Virus record (IMG/VR): IMGVR_UViG_3300046025_000024
Coordinates: 1 to 35,829 of that record
Source of the DNA: a virus
Taxonomy: Duplodnaviria; Caudoviricetes
Reading direction: 5' to 3' (one strand)
Length of the DNA stretch: 35,829 bases
Position 1 is the stretch's first letter. Each line of letters begins with the position of its first letter. The translations under genes were made by a program, and so were the position numbers. Under the pieces are notes generated by a model that was not told the origin of the DNA, searched no databases, and saw only the letters and a list, made by a program, of their open reading frames with translations. This document shows positions 6,259 through 34,792 of this stretch, piece by piece.

Positions 6259-6638
6259 GCCGGTACACTGCTCGCCGGGCGCTCCGCCGCGCCGGCGTCG
6301 ACGTCGAGCTCTACAACTTCGAGCAGGCGGAGGCGGCCGACTCCCGGGGCCAGCCCTGGAACCAGACGGACGCCTCGCCGCAGACGATCGACGCGATCGC
6401 CGATCCCGGCGGGAAGTCGATCTCCTACGGCACCTTCGGCGTCGAAGTCGATGCCGACCAGGTGTACCTCGTGGACGCCGACCTCGTCGACGAAGGCCTC
6501 CGCGATGGCGGGGGCGAAGGCGCGTCGGTCATCGTCCAGGACGAGAAGGCCTACCGCGTGATCGAGGCCGACCGGTCCCAGAATCACGGGTTCGCTGTCC
6601 TCGAGTGCGAACTCGACGAGGAGGTAGACCTGTCATGA
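6255..6638 (+). CDS. Head closure (stopper) candidate
   Basis: 127 aa beta-rich, ATGA overlap, synteny. Confidence 0.6.
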   Translation: MSRYTARRALRRAGVDVELYNFEQAEAADSRGQPWNQTDASPQTIDAIADPGGKSISYGTFGVEVDADQVYLVDADLVDEGLRDGGGEGASVIVQDEKAYRVIEADRSQNHGFAVLECELDEEVDLS

Positions 6639-22195: not shown

Positions 22196-22440
22196 TTGTA
22201 ACTAGGCTATCAGTGTCGACGGGCTAATAATGTTCGATTCCTCTGACAGACTCGAACATTTCTGCCCATTGCGCCGACGCAAACCATCTCCCTCTGGTGA
22301 TCTGCCTCGACGCAACCCGGTTTCTCCACGCGAACCCTTGGGGTTCGACGTCGAGGATACACCTGCAGAACCACCAAATAAACCTCATGTAGCTATATCG
22401 AGTTTCGAGAGCGGGGTAGGAGCAGTCGAGGGCTGACACT

Positions 22441-22489
22441 ACCTTACCAAACAATTTAATAGAGAAGCGGTTTAATTGTTTGGTAAGGT
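22441..22489. repeat. Inverted-repeat site 1
   Basis: ACCTTACCAAACAATT 22441-22456 / AATTGTTTGGTAAGGT 22474-22489, perfect 16 bp arms; contains TATA-like TTTAAT; ends just before ATG 22491. Confidence 0.9.
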
Positions 22490-22490
22490 T

Positions 22491-22829
22491 ATGACTTCAG
22501 ACCAGCAACCTGCTCCCCCCGGCGAGATTCCGAACTACATCGCTGACGGCCTCCAGCGCCAGGCCGTCCCAACCCTTCACGCGATCATCTCGTACTGCGA
22601 GGACCTCATCGAGTACCTCGAACAGCCACCCGACGAGGAGGACCTCGCGGCGGACGACGACGTCGTCGACGTCGAGGAGAGCGAGAACGGCGGGACGATC
22701 GTGAAGAAGATGCAAAAGTGCGGTACCGACTGCACCTGCAACGACGGGAAAGGCCACGGGCCGTACAAGTGGCGGGTCACGAGAGACGGAGACGGCGGTC
22801 AGGACTGGGACTATCTCGGGAAGGCGTAA
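22491..22829 (+). CDS. DUF6788-like zinc-binding, probable DNA-binding protein
   Basis: KCGTDCTCNDGKGHGPYKW...YLGK motif. Confidence 0.75.
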   Translation: MTSDQQPAPPGEIPNYIADGLQRQAVPTLHAIISYCEDLIEYLEQPPDEEDLAADDDVVDVEESENGGTIVKKMQKCGTDCTCNDGKGHGPYKWRVTRDGDGGQDWDYLGKA

Positions 22830-22830
22830 G

Positions 22831-22965
22831 ATGGGCCAGTACATCTGCGATCTCTGCAACGAGAGTGTCCCAGACGACGAGGTTTGGCCAGCGATGGTCG
22901 ACGGCGAGCGTGTCGTCGCGTGCGATGATTGCCGGCCAGAGGGCTCAGAGATTACGTTGAGTTGA
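22831..22965 (+). CDS. Zinc-finger microprotein (44 aa)
   Basis: MGQYICDLCNE...ACDDCRP, two CxxC; starts 1 nt after previous stop; absent from ORF track. Confidence 0.75.
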   Translation: MGQYICDLCNESVPDDEVWPAMVDGERVVACDDCRPEGSEITLS

Positions 22966-22972
22966 GGACCGG

Positions 22973-23132
22973 AAAAGCATAGCCGCCATCACGGCGGTCA
23001 CTGACAAGCTCTCCTCACAGCGTCGGCGTCCTTCGCCTCGAGCTGGGTGTCGCGGTGACGGCCGAGGCCGGCCGTCGAGATCCCCGGCCAGCCCGAGACG
23101 AAGGGGGCGGCCTCCGCGTGGGAGCTTATGCA
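22973..23132 (-). ncRNA. Putative structured small RNA
   Basis: TTTAAA at 23156-23161; 17 bp stem 23104-23088 / 23046-23030 whose two non-WC pairs are G-U on the minus strand; 3' hairpin then CTTTT. Confidence 0.6.
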
Positions 23133-23214
23133 TTCCTCTAAACGTGCCAACTGCATTTAAAGACCCGCCATGCTCGGTGAAAGTGAACGAAAACCTTCAG
23201 AGGAAACGGTGGGG

Positions 23215-23580
23215 TCAGCGACCTTCTTTCATCCAGTCGCGGACGATGAAGTTGATCGCCGCGTTCCGGCTGAGCTCCATCTCCTCCGCGAACTCGTCGA
23301 CGTCCTCGATGAGGTCGCGAGGTGAGCGTAGGGTCGTTTCCTTCCGGTCCTCGAATCCGCTTCGACCTGAGGGATCTAATTTCTCGTACCAGTCCTCGTA
23401 ACCGTCCGCGCCGCCGTGGATTTTGTTGTGGCAGGACCGACACACAGGTAGGAGGTTCTCGAGATCGTCGTTCGACTTATCTCCGTCGGCGTGGTGAACG
23501 ACGATCTCCTCGGTCGCGTCGCAGATGTGGCAGACTTCCTCCTTCCTGGAGAGGCATTTTTCGCGATACGCGGTAGTCAC
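23215..23580 (-). CDS. HNH endonuclease fused to a C-terminal ribbon-helix-helix domain
   Basis: CHIC...VHHADGDKSND..NLLPVCRSCH..IH, then TTLRSPRDLIEDVDEFAEEMELSRNAAINFIV. Confidence 0.85.
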   Translation of the reverse strand: MTTAYREKCLSRKEEVCHICDATEEIVVHHADGDKSNDDLENLLPVCRSCHNKIHGGADGYEDWYEKLDPSGRSGFEDRKETTLRSPRDLIEDVDEFAEEMELSRNAAINFIVRDWMKEGR

Positions 23581-23981
23581 TCTTGCGCGCCTTCACGTCC
23601 CAAGCGTTCAATGCTTTCTTTGAGTTCCTTGGGTTCCATTCCTTCTAAGCGTTCCAGGCCGAGAGAGACGACGAGCGGATAGTAGTACCGTGTTTTCTGT
23701 AACGAGCGTCCGTATTCTTCCTCAAATGCGAGGTCGAGGTGCTTGTAGCGCGTCGTGAGTTGCCGTTCCAAGAAGTCGGGGAGGTAGACGCTCGTGGCAG
23801 TCCATTCCTTCTTGACGTTCTCGGCGAGCATTGCATTCCCCCCATTCACATCTTTCCTTGAAGCCTTTTCGTTCTTTGCGTTCTTGGAAGTCTGTGAAGG
23901 CTGTGAGTTCTCGTCATTCGTGGAATCGTCGTCATCGAACCGACGTCGGAGCCGGTCGCGAACTTGGTCTTCGTCAGTCAT
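23577..23981 (-). CDS. ParA partner (putative RHH-type centromere-binding adaptor)
   Basis: Overlaps parA stop; disordered N-terminus then TSVYLPDFL strand-helix pattern. Confidence 0.65.
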   Translation of the reverse strand: MTDEDQVRDRLRRRFDDDDSTNDENSQPSQTSKNAKNEKASRKDVNGGNAMLAENVKKEWTATSVYLPDFLERQLTTRYKHLDLAFEEEYGRSLQKTRYYYPLVVSLGLERLEGMEPKELKESIERLGREGAQE

Positions 23982-24750
23982 GGTCGATCGCCTCCAGGTA
24001 GTCCGCGATCTCCTCGTACACTGCACGCATGTCCGTCTCCTCAGCATCGGCACCGAAGATAGAACCGCCAGACCCCAGAGACCGTTTGATCGCGGCGCGA
24101 TGGCGAATCTCGAAAATCGGGCAACGACCCTCGAACGTCTCGGTGAACCAGTCGATAGCCGAGCGCTGCTCGTTGTCGAGAGGGTAGTTTACGTTTGAGA
24201 TGAGGACCGCGCTTTCCTCGACGTCCATGTCGTAGTCGACCTCAAGAGAGTCGATCTGGTTCATGAGGTGCTCGATAGCGAGAATCGACGTTTCCGCCGC
24301 CTCGACGGGGATGAGAAGGTTACTGCAGGCGAGGAGGACGTTGTCGTTGATCGGGCCGAGCGAGGGCGGCGCGTCGACGATGAAGTAATCGTATCCGGTG
24401 AGCTCGTCGAGGAGCTGCCGGAACCGGAGGCGCGGACGTCGGCCGCTCGCGATGAGGTCCTGCTCCAGCCGGAACATATCGATGTTCGAGGGGACGACGT
24501 CGAACTCCTCGTGGTGGACGATGATATTGTCAAGATCCGTCTCGGCGGGATTTTTCATCGCCGAGTACAGCGTCGGGTCGTCCGCGAGATACGCGTCGCG
24601 GAGGTCGAGCGTGTTGGTGAGGTATCCCTGTGGGTCGAGATCGGCGACCGCGACGTGATGGCCACGGTCGGCGAGCGCACCGGCGAGATTGATCGTGTTC
24701 GTCGATTTGGCGACGCCACCTTTCTGATTTGCTATCGCGAACGTCTTCAT
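23974..24750 (-). CDS. parA: ParA/Soj family partition ATPase
   Basis: Deviant Walker A NQKGGVAKST, DLDPQG, IVDAPPSLG. Confidence 0.95.
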   Translation of the reverse strand: MKTFAIANQKGGVAKSTNTINLAGALADRGHHVAVADLDPQGYLTNTLDLRDAYLADDPTLYSAMKNPAETDLDNIIVHHEEFDVVPSNIDMFRLEQDLIASGRRPRLRFRQLLDELTGYDYFIVDAPPSLGPINDNVLLACSNLLIPVEAAETSILAIEHLMNQIDSLEVDYDMDVEESAVLISNVNYPLDNEQRSAIDWFTETFEGRCPIFEIRHRAAIKRSLGSGGSIFGADAEETDMRAVYEEIADYLEAIDHD

Positions 24751-24820
24751 GGAACGGTTGGAATTCCCTGCGTGCAAAGATAAAACTACGTCAGACGTTC
24801 GTCATAGACGACGCCCGACG

Positions 24821-24869
24821 ACCTTACCAACCGCTCGGGCTAGTCACCCCTTCAGATGTTTGGTAAGGT
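24821..24869. repeat. Inverted-repeat site 2
   Basis: ACCTTACCAA-N29-TTGGTAAGGT between repressor stop and parA promoter. Confidence 0.9.
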
Positions 24870-24902
24870 CACGGCGGCGGTCGCGACGGTCTCGGTCACG
24901 CG

Positions 24903-25181
24903 TCACTCTTCGTCGAGTTCCAGAAGATCGTCCGGTTCGAGTTGCTGTTCGACGTACTGTCGACCGAGATCAGTTACGCTGTAGTATGGATGTGTTCCGT
25001 CGTCGTCCTTTTCGAGGAGACCGCGGTCGACCAGACTTGAACAGCGGCTAGATACATGCCGTCGCGAAAGTCCCGTGTTTCTGGCGATGCTCCCGCTCCG
25101 GAGTTCGAGCGGCTTGGGAGGCCCGAGGAGCCGAAGAATTGCGTCGTCTGCCGGGACCATCCAGTCGACGCGACGGTACAT
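24903..25181 (-). CDS. phiH1 Rep-like winged-helix repressor
   Basis: RRVDWMVPADDAIL...VSSRCSSLVDRGLLE...YYSVTDLGRQY pattern. Confidence 0.85.
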   Translation of the reverse strand: MYRRVDWMVPADDAILRLLGPPKPLELRSGSIARNTGLSRRHVSSRCSSLVDRGLLEKDDDGTHPYYSVTDLGRQYVEQQLEPDDLLELDEE

Positions 25182-25205
25182 GGAGAAAAACCAGAATCGT
25201 AGCGG

Positions 25206-25282
25206 CTTAATTTGTGCCTATCGCGACGGTAATTCCTTCTTTCTAGAAGTGCAGTTCCTTCTTTTAGGAACAAGCTTAAGTT
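25206..25282. promoter_or_regulatory. Divergent promoters with tandem operator candidates
   Basis: AATTAAG (minus) about 26 nt before repressor ATG; CTTAAG 25275-25280 (plus); TTCCTTCTTT at 25233 and 25255 (22 bp apart), the second within GTTCCT-N6-AGGAAC. Confidence 0.65.
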
Positions 25283-25304
25283 AGCCCGCTGAATACTCGC
25301 CTCT

Positions 25305-25381
25305 GACGAAGGTTATCGTACGCTATGCTGCTCTCCGAAAAGGCAGCCGGTGTGCCAGCACCGACCGCGGTAGCCTTCGTC
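25305..25381 (+). ncRNA. Three-stem RNA at the 5' end of the rightward transcript
   Basis: 14 bp stem 25305-25318 / 25368-25381 enclosing hairpins 25327-25347 and CGGTG-TGCCAG-CACCG 25348-25363. Confidence 0.55.
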
Positions 25382-25430
25382 GTTAGCCTCGTGAAGGCGA
25401 GATCTCGGGCTTAATCTGGCCCGAGATCGA

Positions 25431-25730
25431 GTCTTCCCGAATCCCTCGGAAAGACATGTTCGCGTTCACCCGACACCCTAAAAGAAATGTCGTTTCTCCC
25501 GTCATTAGCTTGACTATTATCCCATGTCTACCGAGGGGTAACGACAGATTACGGGTACTGCTCAGCCTCAGTTTCACTTTCACGGTGCTGTTGGCGAGCA
25601 TTTATGTGTTCCGTAATCATAGAGGTTCGGTGAACGCACGAATCAAGGAACGCATCGGGGATCCGCTCCAGGCAAAATCCTGCTCCCACGCACATCTCGC
25701 CGCGGATCTCCTTCCACATCGGAGGCCTAG
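25431..25730 (+). ncRNA. Structured leader element copy A
   Basis: GCGTTCACC 25462-25470 / GGTGAACGC 25629-25637; shares GAACGCRCGAATCAAGG, CCTGCTCCCACGCA and GGAGGCCTAG with copy B. Confidence 0.6.
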
Positions 25731-25836
25731 GAATGAACACTCCCTTTAGGTGCTACCACCTAACACCAGCTCCCATCGCTCGGCGTCTGTTCGGCAACAG
25801 ACATTTGTCAGACGCACGTGGGGTGACTAGCTGGAG

Positions 25837-25845
25837 TTTTAAGTA
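25837..25845 (+). promoter_or_regulatory. TATA-like box upstream of leader copy C
   Basis: TTTTAAGTA. Confidence 0.5.
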
Positions 25846-25897
25846 CCGGGGGAGCAAATCTCGTAATCAACAAGATAGGAGCGCAGATCACACCCGC

Positions 25898-26028
25898 GGC
25901 TGGGCGGAAGTAGGAACCGAGGAAGGTGGAACTACCTTGGTTTTCTACGGCCGTCATCATAAGCCTACCGGACAGCATGAGCTACAGCACTGTCCTGGGC
26001 GGGTCACGAGCTGCTCCCACGACCAGCC
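25898..26028 (+). ncRNA. Structured leader element copy C
   Basis: GGCTGG/CCAGCC closing stem, two inner stems, TACCGGAC shared with copy B, CTGCTCCCACG 26011-26021, ATG at 26033. Confidence 0.55.
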
Positions 26029-26032
26029 AATC

Positions 26033-26428
26033 ATGCACACCCCAAGCACGATCACCACGGACGTATCGAAATTCGAGGAGTACCGTCGCTCCAGCGCCGT
26101 GGTACCACGACGAACGGCCGTAGAAACGGTATCGCTTTCAACGCGGAACCAGCATGGTACCACGCTCGGCGCTGTTGAAGAAGAAAGCGGTAAAACGAGT
26201 AGCCCCCTTGAACCGACCACGGTCGGCAGAGACGAAACCGCCGGACGTAGTGGTAGGACCACCCTCCCAGACGACCTGCCAGTTCGCGTAGGTGCTTTCA
26301 ACACTACTACTTACTGGAACCAAAACGATACCACAACCACCACACAGATGATAAGACGGCCCAGCCCTGGTACCACATGGCTGGTACCACGCGCCGTCGA
26401 CGCTGAAACCGGAGGTGGTGCGGCTTGA
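26033..26428 (+). CDS. Thr-rich leader ORF overlapping the iteron region (frame also open from 25733)
   Basis: Ends in GGAGGTG SD and TTGA overlap with next gene; low-complexity sequence. Confidence 0.45.
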   Translation: MHTPSTITTDVSKFEEYRRSSAVVPRRTAVETVSLSTRNQHGTTLGAVEEESGKTSSPLEPTTVGRDETAGRSGRTTLPDDLPVRVGAFNTTTYWNQNDTTTTTQMIRRPSPGTTWLVPRAVDAETGGGAA

Positions 26429-26953
26429 CCGAGCGCGTCCAGCTGGGCTGGCGTGTTCCTGCCGACGTCTGGGACCGGTTCGAGGACTTCGTCTACGAGA
26501 AACACGGCGCTACGGGCCCGTACCTCCGGTTCGAGCTCGAGTGCGCGATGCGTGAGTACCTCGATGATGACGGCGTCCTGGCGGAGGCAGAGAAGCTCCT
26601 CAAGGAGTCCACGGACCTTCGTGGGCTTTCTTCTTCAAAGCCAGTAGTTGGTACCGACCGGTACCACGGTGCTGATACGAGGAAGCTCTCCCACCGAATC
26701 AACGCTGAACTCAAAGAGCGGTTCCAGATCTTCGCCGACAAGCACGACGCGAGTTCCTACGGCCGCCTGCTGGCGGCTACACTGGATGCTTACACTGATG
26801 GCGGGCGAGCGCGCCGGATCCTCGAGGACGTCGAACGGCTCGTCACAGGCGGTACCAGTGGTGGTACCACAGGCGAGTCTGTTGAAAACGACGGAGATTC
26901 GGATGAGACGGGGCTTTCAACGGCCGAGGAGAGTGGTACCAGTGACGGTACCA
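26100..26953. repeat. Iteron-like GGTACC repeat cluster, candidate replication origin
   Basis: GGTACC at 26101, 26156, 26369, 26383, 26650, 26660, 26851, 26863, 26935, 26947, several with TTCAAC/GTTGAA at fixed 11-12 nt spacing. Confidence 0.7.
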
Positions 26954-27585
26954 CCGCCGAGATCCGGGTAGAACCGAGCGAGGTCGTGGAGATCGCGGAC
27001 ACTATCGTCGAGGACCCCACCAACACGATGATCCCGAAGCAGCTCCTCGACGAGAAGATCGTCTCCATCGCAGGTGTATCAACTGCAGATGCGATCGACG
27101 CCTATCGCGAGGCCGTCCTGAACCACCTGAACGCCGACGATCATCCGCACAACGACCGCGTCTACACTACCGAGGCGTACCGCGAGGAACACACACTCTG
27201 GGCCGACCTCAATCGCGACGAGCGTCTCGTCCTCCTACGGCGCTACGCTGCGGCCGACGCCGTCGAGCACCGCGACCGCACCCGCTGCTTCGATTACAAG
27301 GACGTCCAGGACCTCTTCGAGCACAATGCCGGCGGTGGGGGACCGTCTCACGAGTACGCGTACCAGTTGATGGAGGACGCGGCCGACGAACCCGGATTCA
27401 AATACGACAAATTCCACGGCCAGTTGCAGCTCCGAGTAGACCTCAGCGATGTCAACTGGTCGATCAAGAAATACGCATTTGAACAGAACCCGGATGCCGC
27501 GACCGAGGAGATCCGGCGCAACTTGGACATCACGACCTACACGGCCGGTTCGCCGCCGCAACAGGAAGGGATGGCCGATGACTAA
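26425..27585 (+). CDS. Putative replication initiator / DNA-binding protein with two RHH-like repeats
   Basis: VQLGWRVPADVWDRF and RKLSHRINAELKERF; iterons inside the gene; TTG start with SD; the initiator role is inferred. Confidence 0.55.
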   Translation: MTERVQLGWRVPADVWDRFEDFVYEKHGATGPYLRFELECAMREYLDDDGVLAEAEKLLKESTDLRGLSSSKPVVGTDRYHGADTRKLSHRINAELKERFQIFADKHDASSYGRLLAATLDAYTDGGRARRILEDVERLVTGGTSGGTTGESVENDGDSDETGLSTAEESGTSDGTTAEIRVEPSEVVEIADTIVEDPTNTMIPKQLLDEKIVSIAGVSTADAIDAYREAVLNHLNADDHPHNDRVYTTEAYREEHTLWADLNRDERLVLLRRYAAADAVEHRDRTRCFDYKDVQDLFEHNAGGGGPSHEYAYQLMEDAADEPGFKYDKFHGQLQLRVDLSDVNWSIKKYAFEQNPDAATEEIRRNLDITTYTAGSPPQQEGMADD

Positions 27586-27736
27586 GATCCCGTGCTCGGA
27601 GGAGGAGATCGAGGCGGCCGTCCTCGAACTGGACGAGAAACTGGCAGTCGAATCCGATGAGATCGAGGAAACGTACGCGGCGAACTTCCAAAGCGTGACG
27701 GCAGACGACGACAGCGTGTTCGTCTATCAGGGGTGA
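27578..27736 (+). CDS. Small acidic hypothetical protein (52 aa)
   Basis: MTKIPCSEEE..., overlaps upstream stop. Confidence 0.7.
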   Translation: MTKIPCSEEEIEAAVLELDEKLAVESDEIEETYAANFQSVTADDDSVFVYQG

Positions 27737-27769
27737 GACGCCGTGCGAGCCGGCGAGTGCTTTCCGCTG

Positions 27770-27819
27770 ACCTTACCAAACACTCGGCCTCTTCCTCTCC
27801 GCCAGATGTTTGGTAAGGT
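27770..27819. repeat. Inverted-repeat site 3
   Basis: ACCTTACCAAACA...TGTTTGGTAAGGT; right flank CAGATGTTTGGTAAGGTC identical to site 2. Confidence 0.9.
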
Positions 27820-27826
27820 CTGGGCG

Positions 27827-28057
27827 CTACTCGCGGAACCAGACGACGCCGCCCAGCTCGTCGAACTTTTTGCTCGCGATAGCGCCCTCGTCCTCGAGGT
27901 CGCGGAGTAGTTCGTACGCGCGCGAACGCGAGATGTCGAGACGCGAGGCGACCTCCCGCGTACTACGCGGCTCGTGGCTGGAGAAGAGGTCGTCGACGAC
28001 GTCGTCCGGGTCGACCGTCGGCTCGAACCGACCGGTGTCTTCGTTCCGTTTCGGCAT
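27827..28057 (-). CDS. Small winged-helix regulator
   Basis: STREVASRLDISRSRAYELLRDLEDEG HTH, KK..GGVVW wing. Confidence 0.85.
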   Translation of the reverse strand: MPKRNEDTGRFEPTVDPDDVVDDLFSSHEPRSTREVASRLDISRSRAYELLRDLEDEGAIASKKFDELGGVVWFRE

Positions 28058-28117
28058 TGCCGTATCAGGCGGGATGGACGGACTTCAACCCATCGACGAT
28101 TGGCGTCGAGGGTAAAA

Positions 28118-28144
28118 TACTTAATACTGGCCTTTGTTCAACAA
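28118..28144 (+). promoter_or_regulatory. Early promoter with palindromic operator candidate
   Basis: TACTTAATA box followed by TTGTT-C-AACAA at 28134-28144. Confidence 0.55.
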
Positions 28145-28164
28145 GTTAGAGCAGGCGACCAACA

Positions 28165-28300
28165 CTGGATCTCTCTCGCGACGCGCGGACTCCCGGCTCC
28201 CACCTCGTAAAACATCGGGAGAACGCGCGAATCAAGGGTACCGGACCTCGCGAGAGGTCCAGTGCTCCAGGGCAACCTGCTCCCACGCAAGGAGGCCTAG
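28165..28300 (+). ncRNA. Structured leader element copy B
   Basis: Closing stem CTGGATCTCT/GGAGGCCTAG, inner stems with GCGA and GCAA tetraloops, CCTGCTCCCACGCA 28276-28289, ATG at 28304. Confidence 0.65.
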
Positions 28301-28303
28301 AGC

Positions 28304-28774
28304 ATGCGAAAACACAACCGCAACATAGTAAAGTTTAACGAACAGGACACACCGACGTTTTTCGGCACCGGTGAGGCCGGAAACGCCGAAATCCGGTGTG
28401 GCGACTGCGGCGGCCGCGTCGTCGCCGACGGCGGCGTCAACTTCTACCGCGACCTGACGGCGTTCCAGCAGCAGATTCTCGTCGTCCTCCGTCGGATCGA
28501 GCGCGGGAAGACCGGCGAAGGCACCGCGTACGGGCTCGCCATCAAGCGCGAGCTCGAAGCGCTCCGCGGCGAGGAGGTCAACCACGGCCGGCTGTACCCC
28601 AACCTCGACCAGCTGGTCGAGCAAGACCTCGTCGAGAAGGCGATCCTCGACCGGCGCACGAACGAGTACTCGACCACCGAGGTCACTCGAAAGCTCATCG
28701 ACGAGCACGCGCGCTGGGTCACCGACTCGGTCGGCGAACGGCTCGCGGTCACCGACGGAGGTGAAGACGCTTGA
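28304..28774 (+). CDS. PadR-family winged-helix regulator
   Basis: DLTAFQ...YGLAIKREL...EVNHGRLYPNLD...DRRTNEY. Confidence 0.88.
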   Translation: MRKHNRNIVKFNEQDTPTFFGTGEAGNAEIRCGDCGGRVVADGGVNFYRDLTAFQQQILVVLRRIERGKTGEGTAYGLAIKRELEALRGEEVNHGRLYPNLDQLVEQDLVEKAILDRRTNEYSTTEVTRKLIDEHARWVTDSVGERLAVTDGGEDA

Positions 28775-34089: not shown

Positions 34090-34792
34090 CGACCGGCTGG
34101 ACGAGCTCGCGGAGCGGGACGACCTGCTCCTGTTGAGCGACAGCAACGACCGGACCGCCTATCTCGGCGGCGGCCCCGACCACTTCGTTAGCGAAGTCCA
34201 CGACGACTCGCCGGGACCCCAGCAGAAGACCATCGAACGCGCGGCCGCGAAGCGGATGGTCCGTGGCTGGAACGTCGTCGGCTTCGAGGACGTCCCTCGA
34301 GCCGACGAGTTCGAGCCGCCCGCGTGGGTCGGCGAGTACGAGACGGAGACGTACCGCGGGTTGATGCTCTACCCGGCGCCCGGGGACTGGGAGCTCTCGA
34401 TCGTCGAGGGAGACTGCATCAGATGGAAGCGCCCGGAGATGCCCGGGCCCGAGGACCAGTACTGGGAGTCGCACGACTCCTGGAGCCCGGACAACGAAGC
34501 CGGGACGATCAACGAGTTCGAGCTCGGCGGCGGCTTCAACCCCGACGAGACGGTCACCACCCGGTTCTCCGTCGACGGCGAGACCATCTTTTCGCTGACG
34601 GACCCCTCGCACGATGAACTGATGGCGCCCATCGCTGAGATCCTCGCCCGTGTCGCCGGCGACGAGGACCTCGAGGAGATCGTCGACGACGTCGAGCTCC
34701 CGAGCGACGCCGAGGAGCCGAAGACAGCCGAGGAGATCGCGGAGGAGAACGGCAGCACGCTCGGCGACTTCGCCGGTGGTCGCGATGACTGA
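34079..34792 (+). CDS. Hypothetical protein
   Basis: MSSDDRLDEL..., GGAGGTG SD, ends TLGDF. Confidence 0.8.
   Translation: MSSDDRLDELAERDDLLLLSDSNDRTAYLGGGPDHFVSEVHDDSPGPQQKTIERAAAKRMVRGWNVVGFEDVPRADEFEPPAWVGEYETETYRGLMLYPAPGDWELSIVEGDCIRWKRPEMPGPEDQYWESHDSWSPDNEAGTINEFELGGGFNPDETVTTRFSVDGETIFSLTDPSHDELMAPIAEILARVAGDEDLEEIVDDVELPSDAEEPKTAEEIAEENGSTLGDFAGGRDD

Follow-up and report, generated by a model that had tools for sequence, protein, structure and literature searches.

The window analysed here is the whole 35,829-nt stretch of DNA, a 35.8-kb virus record (IMGVR_UViG_3300046025_000024) from a phiH1/phiCh1-like haloarchaeal virus. Head and tail genes lie at its left side, and integrase, DUF6788, HNH, ParA, repressor-like, PadR and PCNA genes are found from ~21.5 kb rightward. 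The region around the element matched the L segment of Halobacterium virus phiH1 (76%, in two pieces) and phiCh1. Identity to the phiH1 proteins was 85% for ParA and 66% for PCNA. Conservation was examined in four viruses: the window virus, phiH1, phiCh1 and the IMG/VR contig 3300046062_000023 (L256/L452, hereafter L256). The space between the stop of HNH (23215) and a plus-strand ORF after DUF6788 is taken up by the element. The features are:

22491..22829, plus strand: DUF6788 gene, whose 3' end is faced by the element in all four viruses
22831-22965, plus strand: 44-codon CxxC...CxxC ORF between DUF6788 and the element
22973..22997, minus strand: end hairpin CCGCC/GGCGG (22997-22983) with CUUUU (22977-22973), a likely terminator
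23004..23025, minus strand: 3' arm, predicted to pair back onto the core in the full-length fold
23030..23104, minus strand: 17-bp stem (23104-23088 with 23046-23030) and inner hairpin, in this virus only
23109..23125, minus strand: target-mimic core GCUCCCACGCGGAGGCC, with predicted pairing to nt 7-25 of the antisense RNA T_ant
~23133 (23130..23134), minus strand: predicted transcription start, followed by an invariant UGC
23161-23156, minus strand: TATA box TTTAAA, with TTTAA invariant in 4/4 viruses
23177..23187, minus strand: DNA-damage (UV-box) motif TTCACTTTCAC, upstream of the TATA box at a spacing of 15 nt
23215..23580, minus strand: HNH gene, last gene of the parA operon, upstream of the element

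The 44-codon ORF gave weak zinc-finger matches in Pfam (E 0.013), and the gap that holds it is absent from phiH1, phiCh1 and L256. Inverted TTA(C/T)CAAACA boxes (22474-22490 and 22435-22451) flank the DUF6788/T8 promoter region.

The first-pass annotation of this locus had reported the TTTAAA box, a leader motif, the 17-bp stem with two G-U pairs, the terminal CCGCC/GGCGG hairpin and CUUUU. All of these were recovered at the positions listed above, and the CACTTTCAC box at 23185-23177 had been missed. The leader motif on the minus strand consists of GCUCCCACGC at 23125-23116 and GGAGGCC at 23115-23109, and GAGCUUGU is located at 23011-23004 on the same strand. All 17 pairs of the long stem are formed, two of them as G-U on the minus strand. 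When the fold was compared with shuffled sequences, the minus strand scored z -3.24 (0/200 as good) and the plus strand z -1.52 (14/200). Exact copies of the 10-mer GCUCCCACGC occur four times in the window: in the element, in leader A (25682), in leader B (28279) and in a structural gene (5611). With one mismatch allowed, 11 copies were counted against a chance mean of 6.3. The 10-mer alone proves little, because this count is near chance; the weight for the shared motif comes from the longer common context and from conservation in relatives. The transcription start was placed near 23133 because the mapped phiH starts of T1, T_ant, T7 and T8 lie ~27-31 nt after the first T of the TATA box. 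The mapped T9 start lies further from its TATA box, and a clear box is missing for T5 and T4'.

The same layout faces the 3' end of DUF6788 in each virus: CACTTTCAC, 15 nt, TTTAA, ~22-24 nt, UGC, 5 nt, CUCCC(A/G)CGC, 0-2 nt and GGAGGCC. In the four viruses, conservation is limited to the promoter and the first ~45 nt, and the gene upstream of the element differs among them. The 3' parts in the relatives are short and unlike that of the window. A free-standing minus-strand RNA of about 160 nt that mimics the leader motif had been proposed; its promoter is conserved in 4/4 viruses, whereas the 160-nt length belongs to the window virus only. Likewise, the motif is kept in the relatives and the stems are not: the 17-bp stem is absent in 3/3 relatives and has no clear homolog in plasmids. 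A 62-codon ORF (23133-22945) begins at the predicted start. The first-pass annotation had overlooked it, together with the abutting 44-codon plus-strand ORF; the 62-codon ORF is not conserved. The element is not a conserved gene, because the ATG at the start position is present in only 2/4 viruses (window and phiH1) and the reading frame is lost after the core. Judged by its sequence conservation, the element is a real, conserved, unannotated non-coding cassette. It is not among the annotated features of phiH1, phiCh1 or ChaoS9.

The conservation claim covers these four viruses and ChaoS9, because wider homolog searches added no further element. Scans of viral contigs gave 0 loci for DUF6788, 2 for imm and 1 for int2, all of them the L256 contig or phiCh1. 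A PadR scan of genome contigs gave 5 loci, all without the leader. The imm scan of 401 genomes gave 4 loci, of which the best was a phiCh1-type provirus and the other three had 42-44% identity. The core pattern matched once in the 401 genomes, against 3 control matches. A metagenome scan (17/64 parts) returned at least 120 loci, with no element among the matches listed. Four of the 116 viral pattern loci (L018, L019, L084, L106) fell in haloviruses, and the remainder were taken as chance. An Rfam search over the window at gathering scores gave no match, and neither did the region 22400-28500 at E up to 5. Repeat finding yielded nothing beyond codon-bias noise.

The CACTTTCAC core at 23185-23177, present in 4/4 viruses, is the core of the Halobacterium UV-response box in the available part of PMC2556686. 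The window box matches the motif given there (TTTCACTTTCA-like, just upstream of TATA) at 10 of 11 positions; in that text the function of the box is proposed, not proven. The box-TATA spacing is 15 nt here, and in 47 boxed promoters of the host gene rpa3 it is 14 nt in 34 and 15 nt in 9. A relaxed box+TATA pattern found one site in each virus segment (35.8, 21.3, 20.4 and 17.6 kb), always at the element, and none in the whole ChaoS9 genome. The strict pattern found 4 distinct sites in a host genome (G044), namely a helicase gene, rpa3, a DUF5790 gene and the phiCh1-type element, with 0 in reversed controls; in another genome (G050), the single site was rpa3. These motifs suggest that the element may be induced by DNA damage. 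A caution comes from the accessible text of PMC5924565, which describes a modest, non-significant rise of rfa3, whose orthologs carry the box, after UV or mitomycin. A possible damage box at leader A (25573) was rejected; it lies 17 nt from a TATA-like site and is missing in relatives.

The leaders that share the motif, and the antisense RNA opposite one of them, are:

25632..25735, plus strand: leader A, before the phiCh1 ORF49 / PhiH1_280 position
28149..28303, plus strand: leader B, homolog of the phiH T1 leader, with two UCCCAC loops, followed by the PadR gene (28304-28774)
28153..28303, minus strand: predicted T_ant antisense RNA, ~151 nt by analogy with phiH, from homologous sequence
28328..28345, minus strand: predicted promoter of T_ant, within the PadR gene

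According to the available portion of PMC4284463, pairing of T1 with T_ant in phiH exposes T1 to host RNases, which then remove the ribosome-binding site. The phiH T_ant start was mapped 1 nt before the PadR AUG. Its promoter, CTGTTCGT-AA followed by a T-run ~30 nt before the start, is found in 4/4 viruses. The first GUGGGA of T_ant is predicted to be a hairpin loop, unpaired with probability of at least 0.89 in 3/4 viruses, and the UCCCAC loop of leader A is predicted to be open in 4/4. Leaders A and B have virus-specific variants in common: CCCGCTTG and AAAGAGG in phiCh1, and GGCCTAG in the window. Leader A was bound best by the T_ant of its own virus in 3/4 cases, and the fourth was within 0.4 kcal/mol. 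This preference and the shared variants fit base-pair recognition, with the caveat that the co-variation of A and B could stem from gene conversion. From its sequence, leader A is a likely trans target of T_ant. Folding of the T1 leader (28149-28303) predicts two alternative structures with equal energies (-68.1 and -68.0). In one of them the 5' GAGCAGG is paired with the motif CCUGCUC, and this pair covaries in phiCh1. The promoter conservation, the open loops, the shared variants and the own-T_ant preference make a T_ant landing site the best reading of the motif.

Interactions between the element and its candidate partners were then scored with scripts approximating RNAup/IntaRNA, with opening costs included and at standard energies, not those of molar KCl. 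The full element scored against T_ant -14.0 kcal/mol in the window, -18.6 in phiH1, -17.8 in phiCh1 and -12.9 in L256. The plus-strand RNA scored against leader B -15.0, -14.4, -10.2 and -8.0 kcal/mol, respectively. The sense:T_ant interaction is thus the stronger in 3/4 viruses, and the window is the exception. The best accessible T_ant site for the element covers the GUGGGA loop in 4/4 viruses, with a predicted duplex of 17-22 bp. The first 48 nt of the element scored -15.4 to -23.6 kcal/mol against T_ant and weakly, -3 to -9 kcal/mol, against leader B. Shuffles gave means near -7 for T_ant, and 0/40 were as good in each virus, although shared ancestry with leader B would by itself produce such pairing. 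Between the core and its own leader B, there are 3 internal substitutions, all A>G, which give G-U against T_ant and A-C for a plus-strand RNA. This wobble argument is limited to 3 substitutions in 2 viruses, since the other two differ by a strand-neutral 2-nt deletion. The element preferred its own T_ant in only 2/4 viruses. Exposure of the seed varies: most of it is free in phiH1 and phiCh1, about half is paired in L256, and in the full-length window fold it is hidden, with a probability of being unpaired of at most 0.13. The window would need a short or refolded form, because its full-length fold buries the seed. A 5' UGC stem able to display the seed was not above shuffles.

ChaoS9 is a related virus of the same host species, and its whole genome is without such leaders. 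It carries CCTGCTCCCACGCAAGGAGGCCTA at 34,433-34,456, after the parA operon. Structure is found on the strand that reads like the T_ant 5' end (z -3.25, compared with -0.66 for the other), and this strand has a predicted binding to the phiH leaders of -22.1 for B and -19.7 for A. The other strand has a predicted binding to T_ant of -27.4. The ChaoS9 unit behaves as a base-pairing module either way in these models. In the stretch 34,380-34,505 (L407:10380-10505), ChaoS9 has its own copy of the T1/T_ant kissing hairpin without the target leaders, and interference with phiH-type viruses is possible. ChaoS9_250, an annotated orphan that may be spurious, overlaps this structured region.

We propose that the element RNA is induced by DNA damage and, as a mimic of the target site, acts as a sponge for T_ant, which would release the early lytic leaders; we give this reading a probability of roughly one half. 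Transcription would begin at ~23133, and the host-type UV-box promoter motif would allow induction on DNA damage. The UCCCAC seed would meet the GUGGGA loop of T_ant first and then extend into the 17-22 bp duplex. T_ant would also act on leader A in trans. With T_ant soaked up, the early lytic leaders would be freed, for a net push from lysogeny to lysis. As expected of a sponge, the element has predicted seed complementarity, its own promoter at a separate locus by sequence, and no conserved coding capacity. The proposal is supported by synteny and conservation in phiH1, phiCh1 and L256 despite differing spacers, 3' parts and upstream operons, by the complementarity of the core to T_ant nt 7-25 with the T_ant promoter in 4/4 viruses, and by the 23-nt copy in ChaoS9, which is without such leaders and whose T_ant-sense strand is structured. 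Against it stand the buried seed in the full-length window fold, the near-equal window scores for plus-strand:leader B (-15.0) and element:T_ant (-14.0), and the list of mapped phiH transcription starts, which contains none at the element site.

The host gene rpa3 (rfa3/rpaB1) has a leader of similar layout. The box+TATA+CTCCCRC pattern also retrieved the rpa3 leader, in 23 of the at least 120 metagenome loci; in genomes, 38/301 matched and all 30 that were examined were rpa3. An unbiased, protein-based search found rpa3 in 61/61 genomes, of which 60 were read and one incomplete match was left out. A G(U/C)C(U/A)C(C/U) hairpin precedes rpa3 in 60/60, by a pattern written after inspection, with controls at 0/60 and 1/60. 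In 42 of 45 distinct hairpins (3 short-loop ones omitted), all 252 cells pair, 17 of them by double change. No such hairpin was seen at the 28 rpa1 loci read, and Rfam gave only 2 chance-level matches on 5 rpa3 leaders. The hairpin (L318-L377; alignment A2, model R1) has a GAAAC loop and covers the likely ribosome-binding site in 60/60 Halobacteria, and a UV box lies ahead of it in 47/60. On this sequence evidence, it is a candidate for RPA autoregulation. A second copy (E 1.8e-6; L444:557-589, G037:C3:1256-1288) leads a GIY-YIG/DUF7508 gene on an 80-kb contig. The element and the rpa3 leader are alike in the order box, TATA, CUCCCA...GGAGRC; rpa3 differs in its 6-bp stem, its GAAAC loop and its downstream gene. 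The element was rejected as a member of the rpa3 family (6-bp G(U/C)CUCC/GGAG(A/G)C stem with GAAAC loop), and model R1 gave no match to it at E up to 10. The loop of the first T1-leader hairpin resembles the rpa3 loop in 3/4 viruses, with a weak model R1 match.

The shared layout raises the alternative that the RNA is a decoy for a host or viral protein that reads CUCCCA-type hairpins, such as an rpa3-leader factor and possibly Rpa3, and frees leaders A and B in this way. The covarying rpa3 hairpin in 60/60 genomes and its plasmid copy before the GIY-YIG gene are consistent with such a protein, and so is the rpa3-type loop pattern (in 51/60 rpa3 leaders), which matches the first T1-leader hairpin in 3/4 viruses where 0-0.07 per segment are expected. 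However, this pattern was written after the sequences were seen and misses the leader of the window itself. Model R1 scores the T1 hairpins at E 0.17-4.2, among 51 matches, and finds nothing at the element, which has no GAAAC loop. CUCC/GGAG is expected of any hairpin that hides a Shine-Dalgarno sequence, and the antisense-strand copy in ChaoS9 would be left unexplained. A protein decoy is judged unlikely, though it ranks first among the alternatives. The idea in the first-pass annotation that the RNA titrates the factor recognising the leaders is retained as titration; for the titrated partner, the known antisense RNA T_ant is a likelier candidate than a protein. The element might instead silence the DUF6788 operon by damage-induced head-on transcription, through interference or cis-antisense, with the core as the leftover of a duplicated leader. 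It faces the DUF6788 3' end in 4/4 viruses, and DUF6788 ends within ~60 nt in 3/4 with only short U-runs between. Nevertheless, the core is nearly invariant and the neighbouring spacer is not, the window end hairpin precedes the plus-strand ORFs, and the box is present at 0/29 other DUF6788 loci in host genomes, the 30th being the phiCh1-type provirus; we consider head-on silencing quite unlikely.

The opposite strand offers a further explanation, already raised in the earlier annotation: plus-strand read-through of the DUF6788 operon (phiH T8) would carry GGCCUCC-GCGUGGGAG and act as a second trans antisense RNA on leaders A and B. The 17-nt complementarity, the -15.0 kcal/mol on leader B in the window and the copy on the antisense strand after the ChaoS9 parA operon speak for it, and the transcript T8, which is mapped and constitutive, would have to extend ~650 nt to include the motif. 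In the window this option scores as well as the sense option, but the box and TATA are oriented oppositely in 4/4 viruses, the 3/3 substitutions give A-C mismatches, binding is weaker in 3/4 viruses and the plus-strand fold is poorer, which leaves it only a small chance. The chance is smallest for a leaderless mRNA that encodes a small protein (the 62 codons at 23133-22945) or for the dead leader of a lost gene. In the window and phiH1, an ATG does coincide with the predicted start, and all four viruses keep L-P-R in frame; yet indels of 0-2 nt break the frame directly after the core, none of the four viruses has a start codon after GGAGG, and Pfam gave no match. Two known antisense arrangements were also rejected. 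A T_ant-type cis-antisense RNA does not fit an element that is target-sense and 5 kb from leader B, and a C4/CI-type trans antisense RNA does not fit a promoter strand that is not complementary to the leader sites and has no Rfam match.

The T_ant sponge can be placed beside known systems. P1 C4 and P4 CI are trans-acting immunity RNAs that are antisense to their targets. If T_ant acts on both A and B, one RNA would similarly read repeated short sites in structured lytic leaders; the element differs from C4 and CI in that its promoter strand is target-sense. AgvB, AsxR and SroC are bacterial RNA sponges or anti-sRNAs. The prophage RNA SprY titrates RNAIII, according to the available text of PMC8501977. 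Like all of these sponges, the element would be a small RNA that mimics the target of a regulator and pairs with its seed. It differs in coming from an archaeal virus, in having as predicted partner the virus's own cis-antisense immunity RNA, in its damage-box promoter and in the lack of sequence relation. Compared with phiH T_ant/T1 (accessible part of PMC4284463; GenBank MK002701), leader B is the counterpart of the T1 leader, start and promoter of T_ant are kept, and the element core copies the part of T1 that is paired by the T_ant 5' end; the element itself is 5 kb away, target-sense, unannotated and under its own damage-box promoter. The SNJ2 Orf8-Orf7-Orf4 and SSV1 F55-RadA switches link host DNA damage to lysogeny exit as well, but as described in the available portion of PMC10123103 they are protein-based, whereas the element would rely on pairing between RNAs and on a promoter motif of the host.

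The conserved promoter, the damage box and the copy of the T_ant target make a concrete and cheap test of T_ant switch-off and provirus stress sensing, which is feasible in two laboratory viruses with genetic tools. If true, the proposal would place an RNA sponge in an archaeal virus and link DNA damage to induction at the level of RNA. In the literature covered, which lies outside the 1989-1994 phiH papers and most phiCh1 papers that may bear on the transcripts, no archaeal-virus RNA sponge or RNA-level damage-to-induction route was found described; nor were the element, the rpa3 hairpin, or DNA-damage induction of phiH or phiCh1. More speculatively, and rather less likely than not, an all-RNA induction switch can be imagined, in which the damage promoter would drive a decoy against T_ant, T_ant itself would control two bistable lytic leaders, the T1 leader would gain a second damage input by borrowing the rpa3 hairpin of the host, and the ChaoS9 T_ant mimic would interfere with phiH-type competitors.

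Several further observations were made around the leaders. In phiH1, an extra copy of CTGCTCCCACGCAA lies in PhiH1_275 (L117:8447-8460, minus strand) within the T4 transcript and is a possible further T_ant site. The 5' region of the T4 transcript (window 25303-25458, plus strand) forms a structured RNA that is conserved among the window, phiH1 and phiCh1, with a 15-bp closing stem, double changes in 5/45 predicted pairs and no Rfam match; it is possibly the third leader copy, 'copy C', of the first-pass annotation. The genes after leader A (25733-27585, plus strand) had no tblastn match in phiH1 or phiCh1, and leader A is retained while the genes at the ORF49/repH position appear to be replaced. 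A non-coding stretch upstream of int2 is kept in phiH1, phiCh1, L452 and ChaoS9 (L118 8300-8670; L407 10190-10265). In L452 (~6300-6450, minus strand), leader A is inverted relative to leader B.
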